A DNA stretch of 62,578 nucleotides, counting the filler, from Hausera hauseri (Eukaryota): NCBI GenBank assembly GCA_046269625.1. It is 11 parts of 11 records of this genome, joined end to end, with 100 filler letters (N's around TTAATTAATTAA, not from the genome) between each part and the next. Parts side by side here need not be neighbours in the genome. Positions count along the whole stretch, not along the records: positions 36,290 to 44,210 come from JBJURY010874292.1; 10 more parts are not named here. One strand, given 5' to 3'. The translations under genes were made by a program, and so were the position numbers. The notes beneath the pieces are model-generated. The model saw only the letters and a list, made by a program, of their open reading frames with translations. It was not told the DNA's origin and made no database searches. Shown one piece after another: positions 5,476 to 46,680 of this stretch. Numbering within the stretch: the stretch's first letter is position 1; the number at the start of each line of letters is the position of its first letter.

Positions 5476-5530
5476 ATTAAATTATAAATTAAAAATAAAG
5501 CTTGGAGGAGGCTTGTAATATTAAACAATT

Positions 5531-11021: not shown

Positions 11022-11100
11022 GTATGTTTTCTCATTGCCTTTTATTAACTTTCCAAATTTTGTATTTACTAATTATTGTATACATTTTGTCAATTATAAC

Positions 11101-20363: not shown

Positions 20364-21310
20364 CACCAAGTAAGTGGCAACAACATCACCGTCATTTTCG
20401 CATATAAAATATTCTAATGAGGGTTTTGTTACTTCTTTATGGTACTCAAATCATCGTGCAGCAACTACAATTTATGCCAAAAACACAGCTACCGGTCGTA
20501 TTGTACATTGTAACGTCATTCTTGACGTCATTAAGCATCTACCGGTTGAACTCCGACCACAGGAGTTATATTTACATGAAACTACCAATCATCAGACCTA
20601 CCGATGAATTCGGTAATACGTCCTTCACGTTGAACGGTTCACCATTTGAATGGTCAATACACTCATCGGGTTTAAATAGCGATACACAAGGTATTCTAGA
20701 ATTTATAACGTGGACTGAATCAGAATATTCAACGCCAATGTTTATCGCAAATTTGAAGCAGCAAGGACTTCCAGGTTATATGCAGTTTGTCAGTGGTCTA
20801 AAAACAGGGTCTACAACAGTTTCTTTAACATTTCGCGACGAAAACGTCAAAAGTATTGTGCATAGACCAGATTTTCTGCTTCTACTCATGGCTAATGCTG
20901 CTTTATCACTACAATGCGTATACTAGATTCCTAGCATTCACGTCCTATAAAATATACGTTCACAAGCAAGCATTATCTATAAAACCAAAACTTTCCAGTA
21001 GTCAATATTTATTCCAAGCTAACAGTAATATCACAGCCCTTGATACTCAGTGCTCAACTGTTACAGCAAAAATACGTCAAAACTGAAGTTATACTTATTA
21101 ACAAAAATATAACAGAAGAATTCCGACATACGTTTTCAGTTTCATTCGTCGTTGAAACGGGGTTCTTGTCATTTCATATTTCATTGAGAAAGAACGTTTG
21201 GGTTTTACAAAGGGGCAAAGCACATATTTATACCTTGATTGTGAAACCGTGTGATTCAAATAGTCATCAAATATACATGCCCGACAATACCTGTCTTGAA
21301 TCTACATTTC
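20364..21310 (+). pseudogene. NUP210: Nucleoporin gp210 N-terminal fragment, frameshifted and truncated by the Gypsy element
   Basis: IYAKNTATGRIVHCNVILD..ELYL, DEFGNTSFTLNGSPFEWSI, VSGLKTGS, VVETGFLSF, WVLQRG, QIYMPDN follow the Nup210 N-terminal order across several frames. Confidence 0.85.
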
Positions 21311-24300
21311 TGCGGGGAAGTCGGTCACCGCGAAGTTTGAGATTTGCCGCGGCGAGGCTGAAGTCCCTACTGTTCACCGTATGCCATTAAGTCGGCCAAC
21401 ACCGTTCGCTGACGCCCCACGACACGCCCCTGGCTATACATCCACACCATTTTCCTTCTTCTTTTTCTTAAATAACACATTTACACAATTGCATCAACAC
21501 ACACAAACACTACACATATCCACAACGCCATCTCCACTTTCCTTCACACATCTGACTTTTACATCACGCACAATGGCTCTACAGTACCTATCGCTTGGAC
21601 CCGACAAACTTCTTTAACTTATATCCACCTCCATTTACATTTCCGCATTCGTGGTGGCATGAACTCATCTGCAACTATAGACACCACGGATAAAACCATT
21701 ACGAAAGCAAAATATGTTAAACTGCTTCAAAAGCGCACTCCTACGTCTGCTAAGAACTCTTCACCTAGTACTTCTTGCGCTCCTTTCCCTCACTGGACTG
21801 AATTCTTTATTGACAATCAAGGCTCCAGCAAAACTTGGTTGCAATTCCACCAACTGTGGCTACAAGCAAACAATATTACCAATTCCTTAAATAAAGCACA
21901 CAATCTCCTCTTCTTACTCCGTGACAATATCAAAACACGAATTCACAACATCATCGAAATATTCGAACTTCCCGTTCCATATTTACTACTCTTCAAGGCT
22001 GTTCTTAAGATCACAGAACCCTCAATGGATACTATCATACAACGCTTCTTTCAAGACAATGCTATAGGCACACAACGACCATTAGACTTATTACGCACTT
22101 CTTTGACACATCTACACACCCTCGGTGTCACTAAAGAACACAATCCAGAACTACTGCGCTACTACTTCCTGAACGCGTTACCCATCCAAATTCGGGTTCT
22201 ACATACCGTGGTTGAAGACTCCACGGCTCTTGAAAAATTGGCCGAATTAGCCGATAGAACGCACTGCGTTCTATACTTAAACTCCCTACCAATCGTTTCG
22301 GCTACAGTTGCCGCTAACGGTACCCCAAACAACAACGCATTAATAGAGCAACAACTAAATCAATTATGTACCGAAAATACCGCACTACACGCAACAATTA
22401 ACAATATTAACAACAAATTAAATGAACTTTCCCTATCCCGCCGATGGGGTTTTGTCGCTGACCGAGCTCATTCTGCATCTAAAAACTGGTCACCACCGCC
22501 TGTGCGGTCAAATATCTGCTATTATCACAGAAGATTCAATAAAAGTGCCAAAAATGCTATCAAGGGTGCAAATTTTATAATAAAAGTTTATTTTAGACAC
22601 TGTTGTTTGCATCTACCATGCAAGGTTTAAAAACCAAGCTTGTAAATGTATTCCAGGCTGCATTTTCAAACCAGATACGAATGACGCACGTGCTATCTTT
22701 TCTTCTAATAGTAGTACTAGTTAACCCTTTCAAAAAAACTAAGTTTGCCGCCAGAGGTCACGGCAAATTCTGGCAAAGGAACTGCTACACTTTCGGAATG
22801 CCGACACGTCTCTTTTGCTGTCTTTACTCTAAATGCTGCAATCACCGCTCCTACAGCGCAGTACGTTGATTTCCTCATTGACACAGTTGCAGCGATTTCT
22901 TTATTACCACAAATTTTTCCTGTACAAAATTCGTCATTCAGAATTAAGCCCTTATACGCCGCTGCAGGTCAACCGCTGCACATTTCCGGCATGGCTAAAC
23001 TATCTTTTATCTTACCAAAATTCCCTTCACCTTTCCACTGGACGTTCACAGTTGCTAACATCCAGACTGCAATTCTAGGGTTCGATTTTCTATCGCATTA
23101 TAATTTATTGGTTGATTTCAGTTAACGATGTCTGAGGAGCGGCATCACTGGCATTGTTACTGAGCATATAAACAGCATTTCGACTGTCGCACAGTTGATC
23201 GGGAGGCGGAGATCAATTGTGAAAAAATCGAGAACTAATTCGAATTTTCATAACAATAATTCATTCCGTAAATTTTTAAATCATGGTATTGACATTTAGT
23301 CGAGGTACGATGTCATTAATTGTGGTACTATCACAAACATTAATTTACTCGACGAAATCACTTCATCCAACACCATTTTCAAATCGACAGTCTTACACCA
23401 ATACCAATTTACTTTACATCAGCAAACAATTCACAAATTGCATCCGCTACTACTCAGGCTGTTTCACCATCATTACGGAATCTTTCACAACTGCATACAA
23501 CTTTACAGCAATTCATTAACACATCATATGTACGAATACTTAAAAAAATAGTACGTTTACTCCTGTAAACAGCATTGTATATCACATAATTACACAGCAT
23601 CAAACACCAATATGCCAAAAGGTACGACCACTGTCGCCTCGTCGTAGGTAGGCCGTAGAAACCGAATTTCTTGAACTAGAACGCTTCGGCATTGTACGCC
23701 GTTCCAAATTTCCTTGGTCATCACCTTTACATGTCGTGCAAAAGAGGTAGAAACTTTTAGACCATGCGGTGATTACCGACAGTTTAACAACGTGACAATT
23801 ATGGATGCGTACCCACTGCCACTCATCAAGGATATCTTGCATCGCTTTAATTCAACCATCATTTATTCGACCATCGATTGAGCAAAGCATATCACCAAAT
23901 ACCGGTGGCACCCGAAGGTAGAAAAAACTGCTGTCATTACCCCTTTTGGCCTCTACCAGTACCTGTTTATGCCATTCGGTTTGCAAAATGCCGCACAGAC
24001 TTTTCAGGGACATATCGATTCAATTCTCTCAGATTTTCCGTTTGCGCTCCCTTACATTGATGACATTCTGATCGTTTCCTCTTTGGCCAAACAACACGAG
24101 GAACACATTCGCGCAATATTCCAACATCTTAACTACCATAATCTCCAAGTCAATTTTGACAAATTCCATTTCTTCACAAAGCGCATCAACTTTTTAGGCC
24201 ACGTTATTTCACCCGGCGGCCTTTCTCCTCAACCAAACCGAGTTGAAGTACTTAAGAAGATCCAGTTACCACGAACGATCACCGAAATGCGCAGCTTCCT

Positions 24301-26144
24301 TGGTACACTACACTTTGTACATAAACATGTACTATATTGCTCCGAATTGACAGCACTATTCGCACACTTAAGCGGCGGCGAAAAACATCAGCCAATGTCC
24401 AGCGGACACCCGAATTGGTTGATAAGTTTGATAAGCTACGCGAAGGAATTAAGACCGTCGACATTCTTGCTTTCCCCAAGCCTGACGCGGAACTTATCCT
24501 TACTACAGACGCTTTAGCCACTGCAGTAAGTGCTGTACTCCATCAAATCCACAAAGGAGAAAATCAACCGCTAGAATTTTTCTTTTGTAAGCTAACATTC
24601 TCTGACACTAGATATTCAACGTAGGATCGTGAATTATTGGCCATCGTTCTCGCTTTAAAGCATTTCTTCCACCTGCTTGTCGCTCGCCATTTTACCATAC
24701 AGACCGACCACAAACACTTACTTAACATCATGGCTATGAAATATCCTTCCACACGCCAAAAACGACAAATATCATACTTATCGGCATTTAACTTCGAAAT
24801 TAAACACATTGACGGGGTTAACAATTTAGTTGCTATGTTTTATATAGGACGGTTAGTTCGATTAATTTTTCACCAATTTTTACGCAAGATCAACTTCAAC
24901 AGAACCAGCCACATTAGAACATGCTTAATTCTTTCAAGTCTTGCACAATTGTAGACGGCGTGGCTTTAGACACATCCAAACAACGTCATTCCTTAATAAT
25001 CCTTGCACCATAGTTGCAAAGGCAAGCATTTAATTGTATACATTCGCTACACCACTCTGGTGCTAAAACCACTTTTTGTTTACTCCACCGATAAGTAGTT
25101 TGGCCGTCAATGCGTTCCGATGTGCAGGCATGGGTTAAGGAGTGTGCGGCTTGCCAAAAATGCAAAACAACTAAGCATTTAAAGCCACCGCTAGTTCAGT
25201 TCCCCTGCACATCGCGTTTTGAATCCATGCATATCGACATCGTTGGCCCTCTTCCTCCAGACAACGGCCATCAATTTATTCTTACCATGATGGGATGTTC
25301 CTTGTGATGGTCAAAAGCCATCCCTCTGCGTAGCACAAACACCTATACTATACATGACATTTTCATTCGTACATGGATTAGCAGGTTTGGATCAACTCGT
25401 TTCATTATCACGGACCAGGGTCCACAGTTTGAATCCATCCTGTTCAAATTCCTTGTTAACCGATTGGGGATCCATCACATACATACTACGCCTTACCATC
25501 CCAAATCGAATGGCTTTTTAGAACGTTTCAGAGAACATTAAAAATATCATTAAGAATTCTTGCAGAGTCTAACACTAGTTGGACAAATCTTCTTTCGCTT
25601 GTTCTGCTTGGCTGTCGGAATACTCCGTCCACTTCTACAGGATTCTTACATACTGAAGCCTTATTCGGAGCTCCTGTACGATCATTATTCGAACTAACTG
25701 CTCTAGACGACACTCCTACAGATTAAACGATACGGACGGTGCAAAACCACTTCGTTACGGTCAGCAAAGATTCGTTATGCAGGCTACGCCACAAAGACAA
25801 AGCATATTTACCCGAAGACTTGTATTCGGCAAAATTGTATGACTAAGGAATCAAACGTCGTGCGGTTTCAAACCGCGGTATCTGGGGCCCTATAAACTGA
25901 TACAGCTGCATTCGCATAACGATATTATTTCTAAAGACGGCAAAAAACTTACAGTGCATATTACCAAGTTAAAGCCCGCCTTCCTCGTCGACGACATTTC
26001 ACCAATCCACACGTCAACCTCTTTTCTCACACTTACACTTCCTGCTAGTCCTATATCTGCTGCCACACCTGTTCCACTTCCCTTTTGCTCCTAGTTCTGC
26101 TTCATCATTTTCTACACATTCTATTTCTTTTCCTACCCCTCTTC
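21311..26144 (+). mobile_element. Decayed Ty3/Gypsy element (CsRn1-like, CHCC gag), 3' end replaced by a Penelope-like fragment
   Basis: gag 21659-22700 with two C-x2-H-x9-C-x3-C knuckles; protease FLIDTVA; RT MPFGLQNA, YIDD; RNase H TTDA; integrase HIDIVGPLP, TDQGPQFES, GPY. Confidence 0.92.
21659..22630 (+). CDS. Gypsy gag (frameshifted near the zinc knuckles)
   Basis: Homologous to 53160-54120; LEKLAELAD, coiled coil, CYYHRRF. Confidence 0.75.
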   Translation: MNSSATIDTTDKTITKAKYVKLLQKRTPTSAKNSSPSTSCAPFPHWTEFFIDNQGSSKTWLQFHQLWLQANNITNSLNKAHNLLFLLRDNIKTRIHNIIEIFELPVPYLLLFKAVLKITEPSMDTIIQRFFQDNAIGTQRPLDLLRTSLTHLHTLGVTKEHNPELLRYYFLNALPIQIRVLHTVVEDSTALEKLAELADRTHCVLYLNSLPIVSATVAANGTPNNNALIEQQLNQLCTENTALHATINNINNKLNELSLSRRWGFVADRAHSASKNWSPPPVRSNICYYHRRFNKSAKNAIKGANFIIKVYFRHCCLHLPCKV

Positions 26145-26968: not shown

Positions 26969-29900
26969 TGCAGGACTATGCAAAACCGATGAATTCAGTG
27001 GGTATTTTTATGTGCTCGACATGCTTTAGTTGGGCTTATATTGTCATTCATTACTTTCAACTTCAATCCAGGCTTTTCAATGACGATTATGAAACAAACG
27101 GTCAAAATTAAAAGATAAAATAATTGGTAGCCTGATAAACGACCAAATAAGAATATTGATTTTATTTGACACTGATATGGACTGTTCGGCTGCCAAACAA
27201 ACACAGGCCAAAAGGTAAAAAGGTAGGACGAAAACCGTGCCGGCTTAGCTGCACTGAACGGTGACCCGACTGCCAAAAATGGCGGGCCATATCTTAGACT
27301 GTGGCACTACATAATCTCACCCGTGTGGCAAAAAAGAAACTGTAAAGTAAAACAGAAAGAGGCAAAACGCAAAAATATGTTTAGTGCCTATTGGGTTTTG
27401 GTGTGTATAAGGCGTTGTATTCCATCTGCGGATTTTTCCGTATTATAGGTACTAAATGTCACTTTGCATGCCTTATTTGATTTGTGCTTGGCTGTTGAAC
27501 GATATTTTGTAGTAGACGTTTTATAAGGTTTTCTGATTCAATGCGCTGTGTTGCTTGTGGTAAAGACGTTAAAGATGGTGAGAGAATAAATCAAGCAAGA
27601 AAGGCGAAGAAACTGAAGGCAGTGGAGGTGATAAAAGAGAGGGAAAAGAGGCGGGCGGAGAAAACGGAATAAGCAACGTAGGCACTGTAAGCGTTGCGGA
27701 AGATGAGGATAGTTTAGCGTGAGAGAAAAGTGGTTGCTGCAATGGAGCGAAATCGTGGAGAAAGTTTGAGGAAGGAATGGAAGGAGTGAGAGTTGAGTTA
27801 GGGTTGGGGGTAGAATCGGCATCCGGTTTGTCGTCAACTAAGGAAGCGGGTTTAAGATTCGAAATGTAGACGTTGTAGGGTTTGTCTTGGCATAAGATGG
27901 TAGCTGTATGAGATGAGAAGTGAAGAAGTTTGTATGGGCCAACATACTGAGATCAAAAACCCGAAGGTGATTGATCCTTCAGCCACACAAACTTGGCTGA
28001 GTATAAATTCTTCGGAATGTACGATTTGTTATTGTTAAATATGCAGCAGAACAAGTCTGAGCTGACCTCAACAAAGTGAGTCTGGGCCGCGCGAATATTT
28101 TCGTCTGTCAGATTGTCGTCGAGGTTGGAAAGTTCGAACAGATCCCATATTGGAGTCCCAAAAAGTGCCTCAGCTGGAGCACACCCCGTGGTAGTGGAAG
28201 GAGTGTTGCGCCAATCGAGTAGAACAAATAGTAGGATAAACGTCAAATTGCCATGATTGTCTGCCAAGATTTTTAAAGAAATTTTCATTGTTCGATGGAA
28301 CCTTTCAAGAAGGCCATTTGATTATGGATAATACGGCGTTGTATGGAAATGTGATATTTCCAAGCGTTTAACAAGTGATTTAAAGAGTTCCGATTTGAAC
28401 TGCGGATTTTGGTCCGTTATTATGTGCCGTGGGGATCAAAAGCGACTGATCCAGATTTTAATAAAAGCATCTGCTACTGAATCAGTGTTTGTTGAACGGA
28501 GAGGAACGGCTTCAGGCAAGCAAAAATTACGATCCATTATAGTGAGAATATGTTGACAGCCGTTGTCAGAAGGTAAGGGTCCAACGAGATGAAGATGGAC
28601 GGTACAGGGGAAGTGGTAAAGCGGTAGTTTAAGATGTTTGTTATCTTTATATTTTTTTACAGGCTACGCATTTCTTAACCCAGCCCTGAACATCTGTGCG
28701 CATTGATGGCCAAACTACATGACATTGGAACAAACGAAACGTGGCTTTCGAGCCTGGATGATGAAGTAAAAGCGTGTGAAGGAAAGCTGGTTTCTGCAAA
28801 GAAGGAGCAAGAATGATTTTTTATTACCGGGATTAGATGTGTCATATACAATGTCATCAATGATTTCGAAGTATTTGAAAGAGCTACAAATATCAGCAGA
28901 CGGCTGATTGAGATTTAAAATTTCGGCAGAAAATATTTGTTCAACCGTAATTGAGTTGATCGATCGCCAGAGGAAATTCGCGACCAAATTATCAGTACCT
29001 GAAATAAACTTTATGACAAAACTAAATGTAGATAGGTACAATATTTGTCGTTCCTGCCTTAGTGATGTCTGTTTTAATGACATGAGGTGCATCAGAGAGA
29101 GGAGGAGATGTTTGAAATGTTTTACTGCCAGAGCTATGGCTAGTAGCTCACGATCAAATGTTAAATATCGGCTTTCTGGTTGTGTCAGTTTTCGAGAGCA
29201 AAATTCTAAATATTCATCTTGTGTAGTATTGCACCAGTAGCTGTGGTAGGGGCATCGATTGTGAGTATCAGCTGTTCGTCGGGTTTTTGATAGGCCAGTA
29301 TTTCGACGGTTTTTAGGTCTTCACGTAAGCGATAGAGTTTGGTGACTAAATCAGGTGTCCACTGCATTAATTGTCTTTTATTTCCAGATGAGAGGTGTGA
29401 GAAAGGTGCTGTAAGCTTAAAGCAATGCGATACGTATTTATGGACGAAATGTAGTGTGCCAAGAAAACTCCTCATATCTGTAGTGGTCGTTGGTAGTGTT
29501 ACATTTTTCAATTGCTGTAGTCGATCAGATTGTGGAGAGTGGCCGTTAGGTGTAATGCTGTGGCCTAAGAAATTAACACGTTTCTGAAAGAAGTTGCACT
29601 TGGAGAAGTTAACTTCTAAGTTGCTATGATGTAGTCTGTGAAAAATAATTCGGAGAAGTTCATGGCGTTGTTTGACGGAGTTGGAGGCAACTAATATGTC
29701 ATCGATGTACGAATGAGCAAAATCAAGGCCTGAGAGAACGGTGTCGATATGGCGTTGAAAGGTTTGGGATGCGTTACGTAAACCTAATGGCATAAAGATG
29801 TATTCGTAGAGGCCAAATGGAGTGATGACAGCAGTCTTTGGAATGTCATCGGGTGCAACGAAAATTTGGTGGTAGGCTTTGTGCAGATCTATTGTGGAAT

Positions 29901-30759
29901 AGGTATTGGTGCTGTTAAGACTGTGCAGGATGTCTTTTATGACCGGTAATGGGTAAGCATCCATGATGATTAGATAGTTTATTTGACGGTAGTCGTCACA
30001 TGGTCGAAAAGTACCGTCTTTTTGCTATTACGTGTAATGGTGAAGCCCATGGTGATTTTGACCTCCGAATGATACCAGATTTTTCGAGTTCCTTAAACTC
30101 TAATTCCACGGCTTTTCGTCTACGAGGAGATAAGGGTCTCACATTCTGTCTGATAGGTCTTTGGTGTTTGGTGACAATGTGGTGATAAGTTGTTGATGGC
30201 GGCTTAAACTAGAGTTTTTTTTGAGTATGCGAGAACTAAAAGAAATGATGTAAGATTCGAGATTGAAATCTAGTGATAAAAATAATTGAGGCATATTATC
30301 AGAGGAGGCGGTGACTGTGATTGGCGAAGAACGAACGACATCGCCGCCATGAACATTCGGTTTAACCGATTGTTTTAAAATCAATTTCGATATTTAAGAT
30401 GTAATTGAGAAAACAGATAAACTACTAGATGTATCGTTATCAACCGACGAGCAATTTGCCAAATTTACATGTGAGTTCGCAGACGAAGTGCCTGTTGAGC
30501 TGTATTGTAGACAATTGTTAACGTTCACGAGGGAGTCTCTACGTAGCAAACAGCCATACTTGCAGTCAACTAGCAGGTCGTGTGCGGCCAAAAAATATGA
30601 GCCTATTATTGGCGATTTAATATTGGCCACGTGGAATTTCTAGACAAACTTGCCTGGTAAATTTTAAAATGTAAAAATCAGTTCCGTGGTACTTGAGATT
30701 CGCAAAAGTTAACCACTAGCAGCGAAAATCGGGAGAGACGAAACTGCAATGGATGTAGG
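26969..30759 (-). mobile_element. Decayed Gypsy element of the same family as 21311-26144 (PR-RT-RH-INT, PPT, 3' LTR at ~26969-27311)
   Basis: DAYPLP, IDLHKAYHQ, YIDD, TIDA, integrase core; on the - strand the PPT-like GGGTGAGA is followed by TGTAGTGCC starting at 27311. The left boundary of the LTR is tentative. Confidence 0.9.
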
Positions 30760-32089: not shown

Positions 32090-35017
32090 AATTTAAAAAC
32101 GTTTAAGGTGACAGGAAACAATGGTATCTGTCACAGCGAGCTGTACCATACGCCGAAGATTTTATTGCCAATATAGGCGAAAAGCTCCAGGAGAAAATTG
32201 CCAACTACACGGAAAAGGGCAGTGGATGGCGAATTATACAAATTGTCGCCCTCGGCTTTATTATAAGAAGGTCGAGTGACATAATATATTTGTCCGGCCG
32301 ATCATTTATACCAACATCTGTAGCTCTGAAGCAGTCTGGCGATAGTGAATGTAAAAATACTAACGGCGGTATTGAAATATGACGAAGTGGACACACATAG
32401 CTCATCTCGTCCAAAACACTATCAGAAATATTTTTCCGAATTGGATTTCGATGAAAGCTGGATGCCGATGAAACTGAAATCCATTCCGGCTTTTGAACAG
32501 CGTATTCCGACACTGCAATCAACGTGTTCCGGTACAACATCATCGTAGAAATACCGGCGGATAAAGAAATTTAGAAAGATCCTCATCTGAATATAATCTA
32601 TCGTACTCGGAACCCAAATGGCCGCTCAGCAAATTTGCTGCTACTGGAACAAAAAGAAAAGTACCTTTACGTTGCAGTGACAAATCTAGACAGACTACTG
32701 AACATGCAGCAAGACCATTTTCTTCAAAAACGGATACAGTGTAAATGGTGTCCTGTATGGCATCATGGATTCAGATCGGAAAAACATGGGAGAAACACGT
32801 CACTCTGTGCATAGAAGGTTCTTCAGGAACCACAATGTAAATCATGCCCGTCAAACAGAAACTCAGGTTCACTGATTGGTTAAAAACAGACAGTTCGGCA
32901 TAGGTATTATATGCCGATATCGAAGCTATGTTACCACGGCATAACATACATGACCAAAAACATGTTCCAATCGCCATCAAAATGTTGGTTGTTCAAATAA
33001 GAGCTGCAGATCAATATCAATTTTATGTTTTCCACGGATGGACTTGTGTACGCGATTTTTTGCAGCTGTTGCAAACCATAGTGGAAACTGAAATTGCACA
33101 CTGGTACAGTAGAAATAGCAATAAACTCTTGATGTGGACACATGAAGATGACCGCCTGATGATTGCAGTCACAGATAAATGTTATCCGTGCCACAAAATA
33201 TTACCGTTTGACGCATTGGAATGGCTCGTACCGGATCACGATCATTTTACTGGTCGATATCTCGGAGCAGCTTGCAATTCATGCAATTTGGCAAGGTGTG
33301 TGCGGCCATTTCTGCCGATGGTATTTCATAACTTCATGGGTTATGATTGTCACCATATTTTGAAATGGGCAATAAGTAAATTTTCGCAATGGGAACTATC
33401 CGTAATTCTGACTACAATGGAGAAATACATGTTAGTGTCTGCTCGTATAAACCGGTTCCACGTACGCTTCTTTGAATCATTGCAGTTTCTCAATGAATCA
33501 GTGGCAAAGCAGGTAAATGCCTTATGAGATATACCGATAGCACTGATGCAGTTCCCTGCAAATATTGGGCGCAGCAAAGACATATTTCAATATGAATTTG
33601 CAACATCGTATGAGCGACTCCGGAGAGCAGAGGAATTACCGCCGCGATGGACAGGTACTAGAATGAATATAGGATGAATACCAGAAAGCACAGTGGTGTT
33701 GGAAAGAACTCGGCTGTAGAAATATATTGGATTACATGCTGCGGTATCTTAAACGGTATGTGCGCTTATTAGCTGATGTATTCCAGGCGTTTCGAAAATG
33801 AGTTTGGCGTCAGCTCTAATGTCACTGGATCGAGACATTGAGCTGCTGCAAGACCCGGAAATGTACCGGCTGTTTGATGCTGGTATTCGCAGCGGCATGG
33901 CTTTTGTCAACAAGCATCAGGTCCTTACTACCGATATCACATCACTGCTGTATATTGATATTAATAACCTGTATGGCTGGGCGCTTTCGCATCCCTTACC
34001 GTACGGTTCATTCGAATGAGTTGTCGACAGACAAAATCTGGATGACATAATGGTCAACCTGCCAAGAGCACACATGGCAGGCTCAGTCGGATACCTGACG
34101 GAGGTTTTGGACGATTTACCGGTAGGGCCATTTAACCAATGTCCGCCAGGCTCAAAAGTGAAGAAACTGCTAATGACGCATTAACTGAAGCTGAACTACG
34201 TGGTCCATTGGCGTTTTCTACAGTTCTGCATGCAGCTCGGTGTGCGCGTAACACAGCTGCATCGTACAATCCCATTTTCTCAGCTTCTATATTCAAGGCC
34301 TACGTAAATGGAAATTCGGAGAAACGTCCCAGCTTGTACAAAGTTCGAAAATGATTACTACAAGCTAAAAAACAATTTCCTGTGCGAAAAAACAGCGGAG
34401 AATCTGAAAAAGTGGTTTAATGTACGCCTATACAATAGCTAAAAGTGATTGGTCACATACACAAGTAAGGTTCAGTTTCGGCGGTCAATCCAAACTGCCG
34501 ATGGATTGGTTGCGGTTCTGTTAAACCTTCTCCGGCCAAGTTACATAAGACAAGTGGTACTGACCTGAGCAAGTTGCGGATGTATGAGCTACAGTATCGC
34601 GATTTAGCACGTTACCGGCAAATGTTTGACGGCTGTGATATTAGTATAACTGCCGATGACACAGACAGTTTTTTCCTGCGGCTGAAAAATGTCAATCGCA
34701 AACAGCTACTGCAGTAAATATTGTCAGATGGATCACGGGACACGTCCAACTATCCACCGGATCATCCGTTGTACAGCAGCGCGATTACCAACAAAATCGG
34801 CTGCTTCAAGAATGAAAGTGAAGTTAGTGTCCGGTATTGGGAATGTATATTCCTACGCCTAAAGTGCTAGTCTTCTGACGGACTGTGGACCGAAAATACG
34901 GGCAAAGGGAGTCTAGCCGAGACACACGGAAATCGACAACGGTGATTATCGCCGTATATATAAAAAAGTAGCGGCAGAAGGAAAACAAACAGTGGCTGTT
35001 GTATCTCAAATGATCGT
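32090..35017 (+). pseudogene. Polinton/Maverick-type protein-primed DNA polymerase B relic with embedded HNH (endonuclease VII-like) module
   Basis: EKGSGW; LYADIE; DHDHFTGRYLGAACNSCNL; FHNFMGYD; YIDINNLYG (motif A); YYKLKNN (motif B); DTDSFF (motif C); DTSNYPPDHPLY..NKIGCFKNE; many stops and frameshifts. Confidence 0.88.
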
Positions 35018-35308: not shown

Positions 35309-35586
35309 TTGCGTAATTTGATAAAAATTCATTTCATTTTACACATTAAATTTGCTTATCCTGTTCTTTAAGTCTTGACTCGATTTTTTTACCACACGAC
35401 TTGTTCAGACTGCAATGTGGATGTTTTATCTTCAACGAAATCTTTGATATATTCTACAGTATCAGACTCCGTGGACAGTTGTCAGATTTCTCCAAATAAA
35501 CTTGACGAAACGTCGCAAAATATTTTAAAGAGTGAAATTTTTCAAAATTTTTTGCTGGCATCTGAAATGGCATTTATCGAAGAAAA

Positions 35587-35815
35587 ATTGGATAACATTG
35601 TGTTGATATGTTGTACATTCTTCATAATATTTGGCATCCTGGGAGTTCAACTATTTAAAGGAAAATTTTATTATTGTGAAGGTGAAAATATTCAACATGT
35701 ACTAACAAAAAATGATTGTCAAAAGAATCCATTAAATTCGTGGAAAAATCAGCAGTATAATTTTGACAACCTTGGTCAGGCTCTTATGGCTTTGTTTGTG
35801 CTTTCATCAAAAGAT
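35587..35815 (+). pseudogene. Isolated fragment of a T-type (Cav3) calcium channel alpha1 subunit, repeat III S5 to P-loop
   Basis: [28 protein letters not shown]...[20 protein letters not shown]; homology ends at the selectivity-filter Asp with no GT donor, and there is a 1-nt frameshift at the start. Confidence 0.8.
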
Positions 35816-36290
35816 CATGTTCTCTTGTTCTGTTTAATGAAATGTTAAATGCATCATCCTCGTTGCTCATTGGACATAGCCCATAGGTGTCGTTCCGATT
35901 TCCAAGCCAACTGCTAAAAACTCAGTCACCTAGTAACCGTGAAAAGTGTTGCCTATTTACCACTAGGATTTTGCGTGGTCATCGGTTTTTCAGTCAAATA
36001 CCAATGCCAAAGTGATGCGCATCTTCTTAATCATAAAGGATTATCTTCTCATTCCTACCAATCCTATGATGAAGGATGTGGTCTTTTGTGTATGTGCCAA
36101 TCAGGTTTTGATAAGACGTATTGGCATCGCCAACTATTTTATGTTTCCTCTGTTTTAAACAAAAAAATGAATATGGCCTTCCCCCCGGANNNNNNNNNNN
36201 NNNNNNNNNNNNNNNNNNNNNNNNNNNNNNNNNTTAATTAATTAANNNNNNNNNNNNNNNNNNNNNNNNNNNNNNNNNNNNNNNNNNNNT

Positions 36291-36509
36291 TTGGAAATAT
36301 TGTACAAGATTTGGGGAAGATTTATAATTTTCGGATAAGCCGCATCTGGATTTCTAACTATTTCCTTTCTAGTCCAGTTAATTAAAGCCGTAATCCAAGC
36401 TATTATAAGCGGATATGGGATCTTCACATTGACAGGATTCTCTTGTAAAATTTTGACTCCGATCATTACACCCTTTGGGAAGACACTTAAGGCCCTAGAT
36501 TTTGTATAA
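36291..36509 (+). pseudogene. C-terminal membrane region of a chuvirus-like glycoprotein
   Basis: Frame from 36291: LEILYKIWGRFIIFG*AASGFLTISFLVQLIKAVIQAIISGYGIFTLTGFSCKILTPIITPFGKTL, matching the W..F..FG...SG......IK..I..II.GY.L....G.S..LL pattern; not in the ORF track. Confidence 0.65.
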
Positions 36510-36989
36510 ACGCAAAAACAAGAAAATAGTAACTTGGAGAGACGATTCAGACGATGACGACCCTAAGGAGGAGAAGTAAGTTCCAGAGGTAAGATGCACA
36601 AGATGTATTCAAAGGTTAACGCACCATTACCTATAATCCCACCAACCACACCAATATTTGAAGATTGTGATCGTAAATCGATAGTATCATGTAACTCCGA
36701 AATATACCAAAAGCCTATTAATTATGAAGATCCTTACGAAAGAACAAAACATTATGGAGTACTAAGGAAATGAATGTTATTAATCAAGAACTTACAAAAA
36801 AACAATCAAGGGATAATATATTCGAAAAGGGTACCTCGTAACATAAAATCCAAGTCAACTATTTGGGAGAACCCGAAACTGTGTTCCATCTCAGGTATGC
36901 TGCCGCAAAAACCACTCATTGACAATTACATTAATGAAATAGCGAGCAATAATTTGTACCCGAACGTAGAATTAAGGCAAGTAAAGGTG

Positions 36990-39900
36990 AATATCATGTT
37001 ATCGCCAAAAATAACAATAAACGGACACGGAGTCTCTACTATAAAGCCGTCGAAGATAGCGTCAGATTGTGTCGGAACAGTAGTAGTAGGGAGACCTTTT
37101 GCTAAAACACACATTGAAGATTGGGACGTATATGCCTTAATCGACATAGGATCAGAAAAATCATTTATAAAATATGAATCTATACAAACCACATTGCGTG
37201 ACCAGTTATGCCTACCCGCATCATCGAACCCAGATAGTGTAGGAACATTCGTACATATATCGAAGCCAAAATTCAAATGGACTCCTACCATTTATATGAT
37301 TGGTGAAGCAATTCAACACGAATTTGCCATAATTGACCAGTTAACAGACGATGTAGTACAGGATTGCGACGTATTAAAGAAGATACCAGGTCTAGCAATC
37401 GATGTGCATAACGGAAAACTAATTGAGCTCAAAACATTAAAAGGGACAAAGGTAATAAAGGAGAGGAAATCGGGCGAAGTATGGATTTCGGTAGATAAAG
37501 ACATTCCGCCCAGAACCGAAATGGTAATTTTCGCACAAATTCGTCAGGACGAAGATCTGCCAGTATACTTCGAGGCTCAAGGGAATATAGATCCAAACTT
37601 TATGTTTAGCAATATTCTATGTAGAGTAGTGACGGGACGAATACCTATTAGATTAATGAACAATGACCAACGATAGTGAGATTGCACAATAACACTACGT
37701 TAGATCACACTTGCAGAGTATCTGCAATAACAATCGAAGAAAAATCATACAAATGCGCTGAGTTTCCACCTCACGTCGAAGCCAAATTTTCTTTTGAGGC
37801 ATATTGCAAGTTCTATGAATTATTATTCAAATACAGTTAATAATTGCACAAAATGAGGAAGACATAGGTAGAGCAAAGGCCCTGAGATTAACAATCCCGT
37901 TAAGAAAAAAACATGGCTCGAATGACGAAATTGATCTAGAACAGAAAATGCCTAAGTGGTACCCACCTCGTCATTCATTGAGACCAGAGATAACTAAAGA
38001 GGTAGAGCGAATGTTAAAGCCCATATAATTTGATCAAGATATCGATCATGGTACTGACCAATACTTATGGTTAAAAAGAAAGGAACTACGAAACACATAT
38101 TTTGTATCGATTACAGGGCATTAAATACGCTTATGATAAAAGACTCGTTCCCATTACCATCGGTAAAAGAAGCATTAGACAGATTATCAGGAGCGAAATG
38201 GTTCACCACTCTCGACTTACAATCGGGATACTGGCAAGTGGAAATCAAGAAAGAAGACCGATTTAAGGCAGCATTCAAAACACACGATGATGTATACGAA
38301 TTTAATATTATGCCCTTTGGAATTACCACAGGACAACCTATTTTTACAATAATGATGAACAAGATGTTTATGGGACTCGATCATGCATTCGCGTACTTAG
38401 ATGACGTGATGATAGCGTCAAAAACAGAGAAAGAACACTTAAAGTACATCGAGGATACACTCATGCGACTGTAACAAGCAGTATTGAAATTAAGTCCAAA
38501 TAAATGTAAATGGGCACAAAATACAGTGTCATACCTCGGACACAAAGTCGGAGAAGGAGAATCAAAACCTTATAAATCCCTGTTAAATAAAATATCTGAT
38601 TGTATCGAACCCCAGAACCAAAAAGAGTTAAAACACTGGCTATGTGGGTATTATGCTACTTACGTGCCGGACAACTCAAAAATTAATGCACCACTATATC
38701 GCCTACTCAAAAAAAGGACTAAATGGAGATGACCGGAAATAGAGCCAAAAGCATTTGATAAAATGAAGAAAATTTTGACAAGCAAACAAATTCTGAGATA
38801 CCCTGATGTAGCTTACCATTCATCATTAAAACAGACGTAAGTAAGGAAGGTATAGGATATGAACTAGCTCAAAAACGAGAAGACGAAGAACTAGAACACT
38901 CAATAGCTTATGGGGACGTTCGCTGAAGAAAGCAGAAAAATTATTCACTTACCGAACTAGAAACGTTAGCCGTAAAGAAAGAACTACGAAACTTTAATGT
39001 CTATGTCTATGGACAAAATATTATAATATTGACCGACTACAAAGCAATTACGACATTGAAAGGAGGAGCTAATAACCCAACATACAGATTAAACCGTTGG
39101 ATCGAGAAAATCTCACAATATAACATCGAATTCCAATACAAACCAGGCAACAAACAAGTCGACGCCGACGCAATATCAAGGTTAATGACGAAAACAAGTG
39201 GGATTACTACAGTGAAGAAAACGCAACTTGAACAATTAATTGAACGTCAAGGAACCTTAACCTTGGATAAAACGATTAGGATCACTGCAGAGCAAGCTAA
39301 AGATAAGGTTATCCAGCAGATTGTCGACTTCGCACAGAACGATAAAATGCCCCAACGAAGACAACTGAAGAAGCATCTACAAAAACACGGACATAAATAT
39401 CGCGCATCGAACCAAGATAACATCCTATATTACGAACAAAAAGGTAGAAGACTAATAGTTATTCCAAAAGGATTACGCGTCGACGTACTTACGGCTGAAC
39501 ACGATTCATATTTAGCTGTACATACGTCTTGGAAAAAGACTTTGCAAATGATATTAAATAAATACTATTGGCCAAGCATTTATATTGATGTAAAAAATTG
39601 GATAAGTGCTTACGAAGTTTTTGCGACAACGCTAAAGAAAACGAAAGGCTACGCAGCAGAATTAAAGCCCATAAACGTACCAAACAGGTCCATGCAAGCT
39701 ATGTCTATTGAATATAGTTGGATCTTTGCCTAAAACTTATCGAAATAACATGTATATTCTGCCATGCGTAGATCGGTAAACGCATTTTGTCGAATTGATG
39801 GCACTATTATATCAAAAGACGGAAACTTTAGACGACGCAGTGGTAAGAAAAATCATTTGCAGATACGGACCACCAGAACAAGTCTTAATGGATAGAGGAA

Positions 39901-40574
39901 GGAATTTCACAAGCGAATTATTTAAAAAGATTACCAAAATATTCGAAATCGAACGCTTAATTACTACCGCGTACTACCCACAATGTAATGGAATGGTCGA
40001 ACGAATGAACGCAATAGTCATTCGCATACTATCAACAGTAGTAGCCAAGGATCAAAAGGATTGAGGCGAATTCTTAGAAGGGCCACACTTCGCCATTAAT
40101 ACGACCCCACATCCAGCAACCAGATTTACACCGTTCTTTATGATGTATGGACGAGAAGCAATATTACCTACAGATCTAGGTATGACACCATACGTAAAGT
40201 ACCTCGAGGATCTAGAGCAAAACTTTGCCGAAGTCTTATAGACAAAATCGCAAAAAGTGTTGGGAAGTCGCAAAAACACTGTCACTCGAATACCAGGAAC
40301 AATTTAAAAAACAATATGATAAAAAGACTAAGTCCCACGATTTGGGAAAAGGAAACTGGGTTTATATACATTACCCAGTCGCAAAGAAAGGTACATCCTT
40401 GAAATTAACTCGTACCGGAAGAGGACCATATGAAATCGTCCTCACAATGCCAACCACGGTCTATATTAAGAAAACGGTAAAGAGGAAGTTGTATCAATCC
40501 AAAGAGTAGTTAAGACAGATATAAGACCAGACAAACGCTACAATTTAAGACAGCGAGAAGCCAAGACATCGTAA
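36990..40574 (+). pseudogene. Gypsy pol: aspartic protease, RT, RNase H, integrase
   Basis: ALIDIGSEKSFI; CIDYRALN, LDLQSGYWQV, MPFGI, YLDDV; KTDVSKEGIG, TDYKA, DADAISR; HDSYLAVH, MDRGRNF, YYPQCNGMVER, GPY, RYNLR. Confidence 0.93.
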
Positions 40575-42000
40575 ATTGTCACCAAACCGGTATCTTACGC
40601 ACAGATAATAGTACCCTTATCGCTGATTGCTGTTCTAACACCCAAGTCTAACGTCCAATGGTGGGTCGACGAAACTTCGTTGAGCAATATATATGGAATT
40701 CGGAAAACAGGATTAAAATCTTTGCCACCAAAGGATTGAACTTCCGAACGCAAAGCAGAACAAAAGGATAAAAAATTCTCACGATAGATAAAATTAGATT
40801 ATTCTTCGCCAGAAATCCCATATGTCGGGTTTAGGATACCAGGACCATAAAAAGGCACATTCAAATAATATTCCACGACCTATTAAGCCGATTTGAGTCT
40901 GATTGTAACTTCGAACCAGAAGACGATCCAATTTGCTTTAACGTAAAATATGGACACTCTTACGCTCTCAGTTATCGTTTATATCTGTTGAACTGCAATG
41001 AAATACGCGCCGAAATAAAATTGAATTTACATCTAGTTATACCACGAACTTATGGAGACTACCTTAATATAGAGTTGGAAGAGATGCTCCAGTCTATCGA
41101 CCCATTAAAACGGATTCTAGAAGAAAATATAGCTAGTATAACGGAAAACCCAAAGGATTGCTGTATCCAAATAAACACAAAGGGGCGGCTAATTATAGGA
41201 CAAGTAATCACGGTTAAATTCATAAAAGAGGACGAAGCAGCTCATAGACTACAATATTGTCAGATTGACACCGAAAGACCGAATAATAAATATAGAATTC
41301 GACTAGATTTGTATGATGTTCGAACAAGCCAACCAAGGGTCTTCTTAGGAAGTTACCAATTGGGAAATCTAATTCAAGGAGCTCTGCCTCAAATAACGAC
41401 CAGTAGAATTACGACTACAAAATTGAATGTAACTATTTCATTTTTCATCAAATTCCTCCAGACAAGTGGATTACCTCAGAGGAATATAGAAATCATTCCT
41501 ATAAAATATTGGATACAACAACATGAGATAACGTTCATTGTGGAAGAAGCACTTAGTTAGGACGTAGAAATTAGCTGCCGAACATTACACAATAACCAGA
41601 AAGTCACAGTGACCAGAGGTAGCTATCGAATCAAATGTACCGGTTTGAAACCAAAAGCAGACTACATAATACAAATGAGCGCAGAGAACAAACAAAGTAG
41701 AACGTTTACGGTACGGACCCTAAACGAGCTTGCCTTAACGAAACCACTAATTAGTGAGAAAACGGCAGACAAAATTACGGCTACCGTTAAAACGAAAAAT
41801 TTAGCTCGACAGACAACTTTGTCATTAATATCGATTATTGGAACGTCAACATTTGCTCTTATAATTTTGATTGCGTTTTGTCGACTTATTACCAAAAATT
41901 TCTATAATAAGCGTCATAAAATCACTGAGAGTGAATTAAGGGTGATGGTACCACAGAAGGAAATCAATGATGTAGTAACCAAACAATTGCAGGTTGGGTT
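40575..42000 (+). pseudogene. Type I membrane protein relic: signal-like segment, ectodomain with fibronectin-III-like module, transmembrane helix
   Basis: IIVPLSLIAVL right after the integrase; CTGLKPKADYIIQMSAENK fits the FN3 L.P...Y...V.A.N signature; TM LSLISIIGTSTFALIILIAFC followed by basic residues. Confidence 0.6.
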
Positions 42001-42590
42001 ATTCCACCATCTAACAAAGAATTGGTTCAAATTTAGAACAATATTTTGTTATTGGATTGACCCTTATTTTTTATTTTTCAGAATGGTAAGTGTGGATAGC
42101 TGAATTAGCATCGACAAATATTTATGGGAATAGGCCACAGTATTTATCCCGAATTCAAAGTCTATTTACAGGCGTATAAACGACGCATTACAAACCAAGG
42201 TCTATATCGAAATCTTAAGAACCAGTGAAATACCGAATGATCTTAAAGGCATTACAGAGGAGAGTCGTGAAGTCTATCTTTATGCAATGCGTGAAAATAA
42301 CCAAGCAAAAGTGTATTCTTTAAAAGAATTAATCCGGAATCGACCCTGTAAAATACAAGATATATACATTCACTTAGCCGATGGAGAATTGTATTACAGA
42401 ATAACAGAACAACCTTGGAACTCTAGTGAAGAGCATTAATACCAATTTAGTACATTTAGAATAAATTGAAGGGGCTTAGAAATATCGACTATGGTTTTGA
42501 ATTCCAAGTAGCGGTCCTTCCTCTTAAGCTTATGTTCGAAGTGACCTACAGAGAAAACTGCAACTTAGGCTTGCTAGTTCTACAGTTTGA

Positions 42591-43158
42591 ACAAACTCCA
42601 ACAGAGGTAGAAAGGACGAACATTGTCAGTCGTATAGGTTATTCCAAGACGGTCGCAACATAAGAATTATAGCCATAAACAGTGGCAGAGGAGATGATGG
42701 ATATGGAACACCCATCGAAATATCTATTAGAGAAAGAGATGGGACTGAAATATATTCTACCGTCATAAACCCCCGGAAACATGTCCAAGAGTCGTACGCA
42801 GAGGTAACTGGTTTAAGAAGAGATCAGCTCATAAGAGGAAAGGATATCCAGATAATTCGTTTAGAGTTGGACCATTGTCTTTATGGCTGTATGTTAGCAG
42901 GTTATAATGTACAACGAGATTGAGCTATTAGGAATATCCGATGCAAATATTGCCGGACTTAGGGAAATAGCCACTCACCCAATAGTCCAAGAACGAATGG
43001 AGAAAGCCGTACAAGAAAGAAATCGACCAACCGCGACAGAAGCTTTCTTTAAACTAATGGTCGAAGCCATGAGCAATGATTCACATAGAATTCCAAGACT
43101 CCTAACGGGCAGTCAACGTTCCAAATATCTGCAAGAAATTTACAAGTCATTAAAATGA
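42591..43158 (+). pseudogene. DEDDh-family 3'-5' exonuclease relic (REX4/ISG20-like)
   Basis: Frame 42591-42923: IRIIAINSG...EISIRERDGTEIYSTVINPRKHVQESYAEVTGLRRDQLIRG...LYGCMLAGYNVQRD, then a frameshift to ELLGI..LREIA; fits the vSiv...G..lyd..v.P...v......vsGi....L...l.g..lvGh....D pattern; the ExoI acidic residues appear mutated. Confidence 0.7.
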
Positions 43159-44079
43159 GAACATGAATGGGCCCCGAGAAACCCCACACATAATTTACGT
43201 AGTTCCCTGGAACCCGAAAACAGACGTCAAATACAGAAAGAATATAAAACCATATTCCCCAATCAGAATCGTTCAACCGACAGACGACCATAGCCTTACA
43301 ATTGCTGTGCAACAAAAGACAGAAAACAAGATAAAATTACCAGAAATCAAAAAGGAAGACAAAATACCCACTAGAACGCCGATATTCCTAGGACAGCGAA
43401 AAAAAGAATCGAAGCCAGAAACAATAGTGAAGCGGCAAAAATTGGAAGAAGAGACTCAGCCAAAGAAAGCCCCATCTATCTATAACTATTTATTAAAAAA
43501 GGAAAAGAAGAAAATCAAAAGGACAAAAACCAACCAGTGGTACCAATCACCTCTCAAAAGGCTAAATTCGTAAAGAAAATTGGTAAATCTATGATAACCG
43601 AAATCAATGTTCTATTGGAAAAGAATACCGAAGAAAATGTCCACCGCAAAACGACTCGGAATTATCCAAGAATTCTGATAACTACCGAATACTGTAGCAA
43701 AGAAATGATTAAAGAAGCCATGTTTTTTATCAAAATTGCACCAGCCAGAGAAGTATTCGAGAATATATATGTGTGGGAAAACCCTAAGTTAGGGTAGTAT
43801 CGCACTTCAGTTTTCCGCTCAAAGAAGACAGGAAAATTAATAGTTCAAGTAGATAAGCAGATCCGGATACTATTGAAGAAGCAATACCAAAAATATCAAA
43901 TAGAAGTAAAAGTTTCCGATTTAGATCCAGATCTTATGGCGGACTGGACATTAATACAAGTAAATTGTGACCCCCGGAAAAGTTCCATTAACCCCAAACA
44001 AAAGGTAATAGATGGATACCTGTACCAAGACGGAGATGGTCTTGTGTTTGAGCCGATTGAATTAACAATTTAGGTAGAT

Positions 44080-44210
44080 TTGGATAGAGACTGTTGGGAC
44101 AAAGAAGATAATGAATGCCCTGTGTGCGATGCCAATATAAAGAAAGGTTATGTGGTATTAGATAATAACGTTTTCCGACACAAATACTGCCGAGATTGTC
44201 TGGAGAAGTG
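44080..44210 (+). CDS. RING-like zinc finger, truncated by the gap
   Basis: CPVC-x16-HKYCRDC; the Cys normally found two residues before the His is absent. Confidence 0.5.
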
Positions 44211-44310: not shown

Positions 44311-45590
44311 TATGATGCATCTTATTGCTGTTTCTCTATTGTGCGATACATTTTCTTGGAACTTGTGTATTATGCCACACGTTTTATTGGTACGTGTGTG
44401 TTATGTGATAGATTTTATTGGTACTTGTGTATTATGTGATACGTCTTATTTATACATGTGTATTATGTGATAAATCTTATTGCTTCTTATGTATTGTGCA
44501 ATACAATTTATTGGTACTTGTGAATTATGTATAACATCTTATTGAACTTGTGTTTTATGTGATACATCTTATTGCTACTTGTGTATTGTGCGATCCATTT
44601 TATTGGAACTTGTGTATTATAGGATACATCTTATAGGTACTTTTGTATTATGTGAAACATCTTATTGCCACTTGTGTATTGTGCGATAAATTTTATTGGT
44701 TCGTGTTTGTTTTGCGACACTTTTTACTGGTACTTGTGTTTTGTGTGATACGGCTTATAGGTACTTGTGTTTTATGTGATTCATCTTATTGGTACTTGTT
44801 TATTGTATGATACATCTTATTAGTGCTTTTGTGTTATGTTATACATATTATTGCTACTTGAGTATTGTGCGATACATTTTATTGGTACTTGTTTTCATGC
44901 GATACATCTTATAGGTGCTTGTGTACTATGTGTACATCTCACTGGTACTTGTGTATTATATGATACATGTTATTAGTACTTACATCTTATTGGTACATCT
45001 TATTAGTACATCTTATTGGTACTTTTGTATTATGCTATACATTTCCTTGGAACTTGTGTGTTATGCGATGCATTTTATTGGTTGGTGTATTATGTGATGC
45101 AGCTTATTGCTACTTGTGCATTGTGCAATACATTTTCTTGGAACTTGTGTATTATGCGATACATCTTATTGGTAAGTGTGTGTTATGTGGTACATCTTAC
45201 CAGTACTTGTGTAATATGCGATACATCTTATAGGTACCTGTGTTTTATGTGATTCTTCCCACTGGTGCTTGTGTATTATATGATACATGTTATTAATACT
45301 TGTGTATTGTCATACGTTTTATTGGTACTTGTGTATTATGCTATACATTTTCTTGGAACTTGTGTATTATGCGATACATCGTATTGGTACGTGTGTGTTA
45401 TGTGATACATCTTATTGCCACTTGTGTATTGTGCGATACATTTTATTGGTACGTGTTTGTTTTGCGATACGTCTTATTGGTACTTGTGTTTTATGTGATT
45501 CATCTTATTGGTACTTGTGTATTATGTGATACATCTTATTGGTATTTGTGTACTATGTGATACATCTTATTGGTACTTGTGTATTATGTG
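44311..45590 (+). repeat. 31-bp minisatellite (GGTACTTGTGTATTATGTGATACATCTTATT), about 40 diverged units
   Basis: Head-to-tail tandem units with no unique spacers. Confidence 0.95.
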
Positions 45591-46019
45591 GTTTGCACAA
45601 ATGATAATGACGATGTATGAAACGTTTGAATTTCAATTCCGTCAAATTATACACAACGAGAATCAAAGAGATTAGGTGCAATGATGAAAAGTACTTTTGT
45701 TTAATAATATATATCGGGCGATTCATTAAAAGTGTCGATTTGTGAATTCAGCCTTGCCATCTTATAACTATATTGAATAAAACTTTGAAACCATCGTTGT
45801 TGGAGTTATTTTTAGTCCTATGATTCGAATTTAATAGTGGATTTTGTCAGAATGATTGTATTTTACTATTCATGGCGATACTACTTTGCTACAACATTCC
45901 AAAAGTTCCCTTACGGATAATTGATTATAATGTTGGGAGGTGTGAGGTTGTGTTTAGGGGAAGACCGGCTCTCTTAACAACTGCCGGTACCACAACTATA
46001 TTATGCAAACTTAAATCAA

Positions 46020-46680
46020 CTCAGAAAAAAATAATAATACATTTTGCAAAATTACATTCCTGATGTTAAATTAATTTTTACATCAACGAAAATAATAGAT
46101 TACTTTTCAGATAAATGTCGCACTCTCCAAGTTTTAAAATTAGATTTGGTTTATGAACTTAAATATCATGGATGCGATAATTCATAGATTGGAGAGACAA
46201 ATCGTCAAGTCTGGAGTAGAATGTTAGAACATGTGCAACAGGGAAGAAATTGGTCCATAAATGGGCATATTTCGAAATGTGTTTACCCCAATAAAAAATG
46301 GATGAGAGAATTCAAAATTTTAAATTCTAATTTTAATAATTATTTTGAAAGAGTGACATGTGAAGCGTAGAGAATACAGGATTTAAAGCCTAGTTTGAAT
46401 GTCCAAGCGGAAGATTCGGGCTTGCTTCAGATTATTTATTCTTAATTTACAAGTTTAGCGTTTTTTGTGCATATTAAATAACACTCTCTTCACATATTTA
46501 AGGTTGCGGTTTCATGTCACTTTCAGTATATTATCTGATTGTGGCCCTTGAAATCGAAATATGTCATAAAGGGAATAAACAATTTGAACCGAGTTCAACA
46601 TTTTTAAATATATTTATTTACTTCGAAATATCAGTACTTCGAAAACCCTGAAAGCCGTATCTACCGAAACGTCGATCAGA
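46020..46680 (+). mobile_element. Penelope-like element 3' end (GIY-YIG endonuclease relic and 3' region)
   Basis: LVYELKYHGCDNS*IGETNRQVWSRMLEH...H...C...FKIL...R...EA..IQDLKPSLN. Confidence 0.8.
46531..46570 (+). ncRNA. Mutated minimal type-I hammerhead ribozyme-like motif
   Basis: TTAT-CTGATTG-N14-GAAA-TATG-TC-ATAA: stem I TTAT/ATAA, core deviates from CTGANGA; located where Penelope-like elements carry hammerheads. Confidence 0.4.

Follow-up and report, generated by a model that had tools for sequence, protein, structure and literature searches.

In the planarian element Burro/GYPSM1, as described in the accessible parts of PMC6431247, an env gene with matches to mononegavirus glycoproteins lies in frame between gag and pol, the element also has Ubi/SUMO, BCL2, BIR and ankyrin domains, and the authors call the arrangement a first case. 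GAG-ENV-POL errantiviruses with an HSV/gB-type env are reported from Nematoda, Bryozoa and Platyhelminthes in the portions of PMC13524379 available, which count 114 Gypsy elements with a Chuviridae-like glycoprotein, argue for an ancient origin and leave open how retroelement gB-type fusogens find their target cells. By the accessible text of PMC10084718 (2023), there was no clear capture by Gypsy, and many chuvirus EVEs lay beside fragmentary Gypsy pieces. Two further systems are relevant: Anakin (PMC7642597), a BEL/Pao element with a chuvirus glycoprotein, and bdelloid Juno/Vesta (PMC5408684), in which an ORF of its own behind pol encodes a 3'-5' exonuclease. The available text of PMC5408684 and PMC6338049 shows that LTR elements with exonuclease ORFs were already known.

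Here we describe a piece of a Hausera hauseri assembly (GCA_046269625.1) that is probably the internal part of a decayed copy of a Burro-like animal Ty3/gypsy element with the order gag-env-PR-RT-RNase H-integrase-FN3 protein, followed by accessory ORFs. The window, the whole stretch of 62,578 nucleotides that was analysed, consists of 11 pieces with ten identical N44-TTAATTAATTAA-N44 linkers between them, so adjacency across linkers is biologically meaningless. One such linker, an unstranded assembly feature, occupies 36190..36289, and the 7.9-kb unplaced piece 36290-44210 begins directly after it and is cut by linkers at both ends. The env relic sits at the extreme left end of this piece; with 36290 as the first position of the piece, the sequence includes neither the env ectodomain nor gag nor the 5' LTR. 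The piece is a broken copy, unable to encode its proteins.

Judged by its sequence, the window points to animal DNA, given its ion-channel and NUP210 fragments and its several retroelements. The former are an isolated Ion_trans fragment (35372-35845, + strand) and a NUP210 Ig-domain fragment (20408-20923, +), each probably an exon or gene relic. Fragmented retroelements are abundant: four Gypsy-type pol fragments and one long non-LTR-type RT ORF occur at 16952-19936 (-), 21476-25982 (+), 27893-30252 (-), 54740-57289 (+) and 1826-3490 (-), and three of these four other Gypsy-type fragments are 63-65% alike in DNA. The region 4582-7252 (+) holds an SGNH-like ORF and then a second ORF, in which short repeats accompany a Herpes_teg_N domain (E 1.5e-5), and we take the region to be Helitron-like, while an Endonuclease VII plus DNA_pol_B_2 fragment at 32904-33524 (+) is presumably Polinton-like. 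An uninterrupted 619-aa WD40 ORF at 9189-11045 (+), which we assume to be DCAF8-like, lies in a G+C-richer piece and is a possible retrocopy. A degenerate tandem array of ~1.3 kb (44311-45590) and, by eye only, a GIY-YIG-like relic near 45900-46400 were also seen.

At the left end of the piece, the sequence-only reading had recognised a peptide with the hydrophobic pattern of a chuvirus-type glycoprotein C-terminus. This peptide is present on the + strand in the frame of 36291, with its K at 36306 and a single stop at 36336, and it contains two hydrophobic stretches, starting at 36318 and 36351. The 72-residue peptide, with X at the stop, matched Pfam PF24664 (Monjiviricetes_fusion) with E 1.1e-9 and 37.2 bits, above the cut-off of 27, at profile positions 536-593 of 653, that is, over the C-terminal 58 positions only; the stop-free 56-aa part alone matched with E 5.9e-5. 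When 1.84 billion representatives were scanned with HMMER, 20 proteins matched, of which 11 were PF24664 proteins and nine WD40 repeats; the WD40 matches were spurious and were left out of the 19-protein tail comparison. Profile similarity thus confirmed the predicted identity of 36291..36506 (+) as the membrane-anchor end of a gB-type (Monjiviricetes/chuvirus-like) fusion glycoprotein, covering its C-terminal membrane-proximal and transmembrane part.

The same reading had placed this glycoprotein where gag is expected, a view that the relatives described below do not bear out: they have gag further 5', before env, so gag appears cut off rather than replaced. That no gag knuckle is seen follows from the piece beginning 16 bases before the peptide, and carries no information on gag replacement.

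The charged, proline-rich relic noted behind the peptide was recovered at 36510-36773, leading in the same frame to the protease ORF. We annotate 36507..36773 (+) as a putative decayed cytoplasmic tail or spacer; it has no Pfam match and no LTR-like repeat, and its stops in the env frame fall at 36507, 36555, 36564 and 36771. The protease open frame (36774..37673, +) continues in the env-tail frame and comprises a YP motif at 36957, an aspartic protease relic with its Asp at 37143 in the motif D-I-G, and a post-protease domain. Tblastn of this ORF against the protease regions of relatives gave E values of 4e-5 to 8e-8; the ORF has no Pfam match of its own, and a word-based homolog search with it returned 0 matches among 459 candidates. 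The post-protease region is homologous to the post-protease domain of the relatives, and Pfam shows no dUTPase in it. The end of the env match lies ~0.68 kb from the protease Asp on the same strand, within the 2 kb upstream of pol allowed for a gB-type env in the GAG-ENV-POL definition.

Eight of nine polyproteins have one YP motif, a motif of two residues only, 41-62 aa before the protease Asp, where it ends the env tail. The window's YP likewise lies 62 aa before the Asp and falls inside the protease ORF, which favours a polyprotein. In the window, 277 codons separate a conserved W from the protease Asp, more than in any relative (148-211). A glycoprotein-Pol polyprotein, suggested from the sequence at the outset, is accordingly probable for the element on the strength of the shared frame, the YP inside the protease ORF and the continuous relatives, while the window copy itself speaks against it, with five stops between env and protease.

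The pol domains follow on the + strand, all broken by stops and frameshifts: reverse transcriptase with stops at 38025..38810 (RVT_1 E 5.4e-32; 42% to the polyprotein P0010), RNase H and the integrase zinc-binding domain at 38801..39730 (RT_RNaseH E 5.8e-19; Integrase_H2C2 E 1.4e-12), and the integrase core with a GPY/F C-terminal module, in two frames, at 39669..40488 (rve E 1.4e-8; MLVIN_C E 0.002). The PR-RT-RH-IN order, the Gypsy-type RT and the GPY/F integrase end place this pol in Ty3/gypsy; the named RT matches are Ty3/Gypsy-type pol proteins, and the features of a BEL/Pao-type pol were not found.

Collinear relatives revealed how such a pol is connected to env. P0010 (HBK71150.1; 2627 aa) encodes env, protease, RT, RNase H and integrase in a single ORF collinear with the piece. 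At NCBI this gag-env-pol retroelement polyprotein carries a Flavobacteriaceae label, which most likely reflects animal DNA assigned to a bacterial genome bin. A search with the P0010 env among proteins of 1444-4598 aa found seven proteins including P0010 itself, six of which have env followed by PR-RT-RH-IN in one ORF; the seventh, P0022, has env and then proteases only. Scanning metagenomes with the env alignment gave at least three loci (L001, L002 and L003) among at least 593 pattern matches, while the same scan gave 0 loci from 76 pattern matches in viral_contigs and 0 from 49 in prokaryote genomes.

With L001 and L003, each a single env-pol ORF, the polyproteins total nine, eight with env-PR-RT-RH-IN and the ninth with env-PR, and env runs continuously into protease in all nine relatives that reach the protease. 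A zf-CCHC knuckle precedes env in four of the nine and in L002, where a stop separates the gag ORF from env, which indicates that the lineage is able to split its ORFs. Extra aspartic protease copies occur in P0021-P0026, P0022 having as many as four stretches, and C2H2 zinc-finger matches lie between env and RT in P0023 and P0026.

Ranking of the window's pol segments, in a set of eight pol-bearing relatives and 120 Gypsy pols picked for RT likeness to the window, had an env-bearing protein as top match for five of five segments. The env-bearing proteins held ranks 1-7 and 86 of 86 for the protease region, 1 to 121 of 125 for RT, 1-6, 8 and 17 of 93 for RH-H2C2, 1-32 of 77 for the integrase core, and 1-7 and 45 of 72 for the integrase C-terminus. 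The RT motif HAxxY[ILVM]DD, present in the window, occurs in 6/8 env-bearing proteins and 0/116 others. In an RT tree (131 rows, quick search) the eight relatives group with an SH-aLRT of 91, and the window stands unplaced on a long branch of 2.7. Scores and motifs together suggest that the window pol goes with the env-bearing lineage, while the RT tree leaves it unplaced.

Downstream of the integrase, a YxLR motif with a hydrophobic stretch (40539..40634, +), shared with relatives, would probably act as an internal signal for the membrane protein that follows. YxLR follows GPY/F in seven of the eight relatives having GPY/F, and the hydrophobic stretch of the window, with a 15-aa average of 1.95, falls slightly short of the threshold of 2.0 applied to the relatives. 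At least two hydrophobic stretches follow the integrase in seven of eight pol-bearing relatives, compared with any at all in one of 11 other long-tailed pols.

A second membrane protein occupies 40781..42100 (+), with stops at 40832 and 41558. Structure prediction, Foldseek, profile and hydropathy divide it into an FN3-fold domain (41477-41728), a Thr-rich stalk, a transmembrane helix from 41813 and a tail, all on the + strand. AF2 with a 7-row alignment modelled 41477-41728 as a seven-strand sandwich (pLDDT 83), for which Foldseek returned neogenin and fibronectin FN3 domains (E 3.9e-4, TM up to 0.77). A profile built from the rows of six relatives found the window domain at iE 8.6e-11 (next best in the window, 5.4) and also P0023, absent from the alignment, at 1.8e-5, values that are optimistic because the rows, selected by eye, had been aligned jointly with that of the window; it found none among 120 other Gypsy pols (best iE 2.3). 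According to the model, what follows the integrase is a membrane-anchored FN3-fold domain, and this FN3-TM cargo is common to six of nine relatives.

Of the pairwise and whole-region profile comparisons of the post-integrase regions, that with P0010 gave nothing, P0024 did best with an iE of 0.16 over the whole window, and a five-sequence profile missed the signal, which appeared only after trimming to the domain. A single-sequence AF2 model of the 374-aa second membrane protein reached pLDDT 39 and was set aside. In the ESM Atlas, 40835-41557 had no usable match; the FN3-TM part gave a 0.92 match to fn3 proteins with 163 shared features, which we treat as a lead only. The gag-env-pol ORF of L003 (L003:440-8518) ends in a Cys-rich post-integrase membrane protein that the FN3 profile does not match, so the cargo slot may be exchangeable.

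Further 3', 42591..42960 (+) is probably the relic of an ISG20-like DEDDh 3'-5' exonuclease, spread over two frames and with its first acidic motif lost. Its counterpart is a separate, intact ORF after the polyprotein of L001, an RNase_T-family exonuclease (E 1.4e-5) nearest to ISG20L2/ISG20 among solved structures (E 2e-8); the evidence for exonuclease cargo comes from this one relative. The relic matches the L001 exonuclease in the collinear place with a pairwise E of 7e-6; its identity is graded only probable on account of the whole-window tblastn, where the same query reached E 1.3. The segment had no Pfam match, and a PDB sequence search with it returned ISG20L2, ISG20 and PolC at E 0.68-1.6, below spurious FixL matches. 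Further decayed coding sequence extends over 43160..44208 (+), where a RING-like Cys/His cluster at 44116-44208, seen by eye and by Prok-RING_4 at E 0.021, under the cut-off, is truncated by the piece end. Between 40470 and 44208, none of the frames scanned gave a Pfam match to BIR or ankyrin at E <= 1.

Among the closest known systems, compared through their accessible descriptions, Burro/GYPSM1 resembles the window's lineage in having env between gag and protease, accessory domains and, to judge from the relatives, one polyprotein. As in the parts of PMC6431247 describing Burro, the relatives show weak ubiquitin (P0024, E 0.018; L002, E 0.005) and Bcl-2 (P0019, E 0.001) matches before env. 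Burro differs, in the same available text, by its BIR and ankyrin domains, whereas the window has the FN3-TM protein and the probable DEDDh exonuclease after the integrase, neither of which that text lists for Burro; Burro is further defined there by a length >25 kb and a dUTPase-like domain between PR and RT, and the window lacks a Pfam dUTPase match. We file the element as Burro-like, not as Burro, since BIR and ankyrin were not found and the piece ends at 44210.

The GAG-ENV-POL errantiviruses, as far as the available text of PMC13524379 describes them, share with the window a Ty3/gypsy pol and a gB-type env before pol. The relatives' env has, by eye, a YQESDF-type stretch in common with the Schmidtea rows in the accessible part of supplement 2 of that paper; the broken window copy would fail the intactness filter described there. 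Anakin, in the portions of PMC7642597 at hand, has the same Pfam glycoprotein family in an LTR retrotransposon, but it is BEL/Pao, and the window pol is Gypsy-type by its best matches to Ty3/Gypsy and its GPY/F module. Juno/Vesta resemble L001 in their separate 3'-5' exonuclease ORF downstream of pol; by the available text of PMC5408684, however, their ORF3 is RNase D-like DEDDy and replaces env, whereas that of L001 is ISG20/ISG20L2-like and additional to env and the FN3-TM protein.

How env and pol are joined can be read in other ways, each of which has some evidence behind it. The same element might express env and pol from separate ORFs, with TGA at 36771 and ATG at 36774 used by stop-start coupling or readthrough; the two codons are adjacent and in frame, the window spacer exceeds that of the polyprotein relatives, and L002 demonstrates that ORFs in this lineage can split. 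We nevertheless consider this unlikely, as the YP motif, which ends the env tail in 8/9 relatives, falls after ATG 36774, one more stop is expected from decay in a copy with many stops elsewhere, and 9/9 protease-reaching relatives are continuous from env. An independent capture, or an env swap, of a chuvirus-type glycoprotein by a Gypsy lineage had been proposed from the sequence; here it went unsupported and is quite improbable. The env tail does score 66.9 bits against a profile of stand-alone insect-type glycoproteins, a set chosen by likeness to this very tail, versus 55.0 against the polyprotein profile, and the window RT is unplaced in the tree. Yet the tail scores under most members of both groups, and its best single blastp matches are polyproteins (P0010, 53.1 bits; L001, 52.0), barely ahead of a stand-alone glycoprotein (51.6). 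Pol, YP spacing and FN3 cargo moreover tie the window to a lineage in which env was already present; in-frame env is described for Burro in the available text of PMC6431247, and GAG-ENV-POL order for Gypsy in that of PMC13524379, where an ancient acquisition is argued.

In an accidental junction, nesting, deletion or misassembly would have brought an unrelated pol lacking gag next to a solo chuvirus EVE or to the 3' end of an element with env. This would suit a window full of fragmented retroelements, and chuvirus EVEs beside Gypsy pieces without capture are on record in the accessible parts of PMC10084718. Such a junction is highly improbable here: env and protease are in the same frame, order and cargo are common to relatives, and no repeat, polypurine-TG site or change in strand bias marks a boundary. 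Two CA..TGG matches fall in the env-spacer region, at 36343 and 36750. The A-rich strand bias keeps to the same strand along the whole piece, and LTR-like repeats were found neither in the piece nor in the window, including 36510-36990, the interval in which an LTR or insertion junction had been named as evidence against a single element.

Sequence data bear on this point as well. Public run X1, possibly the sample from which the window was built, contains 11,110 contigs at >=85% identity on the piece, 439 of them at >=99%, covering 30/30 bins; this identifies a repeat family, of which the summed contig depth is a sign but gives no copy number. A 335-nt contig without differences covers 36712-37046 and another connects 36671 with 37073, so the spacer-protease junction is present in the data, and these two contigs connecting spacer and protease region argue against an accident. 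Among the X1 contigs listed, none joins the transmembrane part to 36712.

Collectively, the matching order in relatives, the pol scores and motifs and the absence of an intervening LTR make the originally proposed env-before-pol order on a Gypsy pol very likely. This architecture is already published, and the order alone carries little weight since it repeats published findings. The conserved FN3-TM protein and the probable ISG20-like exonuclease are an added variant worth a note. Neither FN3 nor ISG20 cargo was found in the literature searched, which covered few subscription papers and did not extend to Repbase, and figures or supplements of the Burro paper may show such cargo; the words 'fibronectin', 'exonuclease' and 'polyprotein' are absent from the main text of PMC13524379 in the form available.

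Returning to the Burro-like polyprotein element as the preferred reading, intact relatives suggest that the whole element would be translated into a single polyprotein. Its env ectodomain would be directed into the ER lumen by an internal signal preceding env, and a transmembrane segment of the window type would bring the chain back into the cytosol for the protease to release RT and integrase. Another signal, behind the integrase, would then place the FN3 domain outside, held by the second transmembrane helix. Capsid, fusogen, enzymes and another surface protein would in this way all come from one ORF, and the exonuclease from an accessory ORF of its own. To judge from the protein families involved, env most likely gave particles entry to neighbouring cells of the germline or stem-cell type, the FN3 protein most likely served as an attachment or host-receptor-like surface protein, and the exonuclease may have helped to evade RNA defence. 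The env itself would have been inherited with the lineage, not freshly captured.

Herpes gB requires a separate partner protein. It is a tentative possibility that this Gypsy lineage is a two-surface-protein virus, with one polyprotein bearing a gB-type fusogen before pol and an FN3 attachment or decoy protein after the integrase, a separate ISG20-like exonuclease directed against host RNA defence, and hosts perhaps beyond flatworms, nematodes and bryozoans. If the cargo is functional, an invertebrate retroelement would here have two envelope-side proteins and a nuclease that may counter defence, which would bear on how retroelement gB-type fusogens find their target cells.
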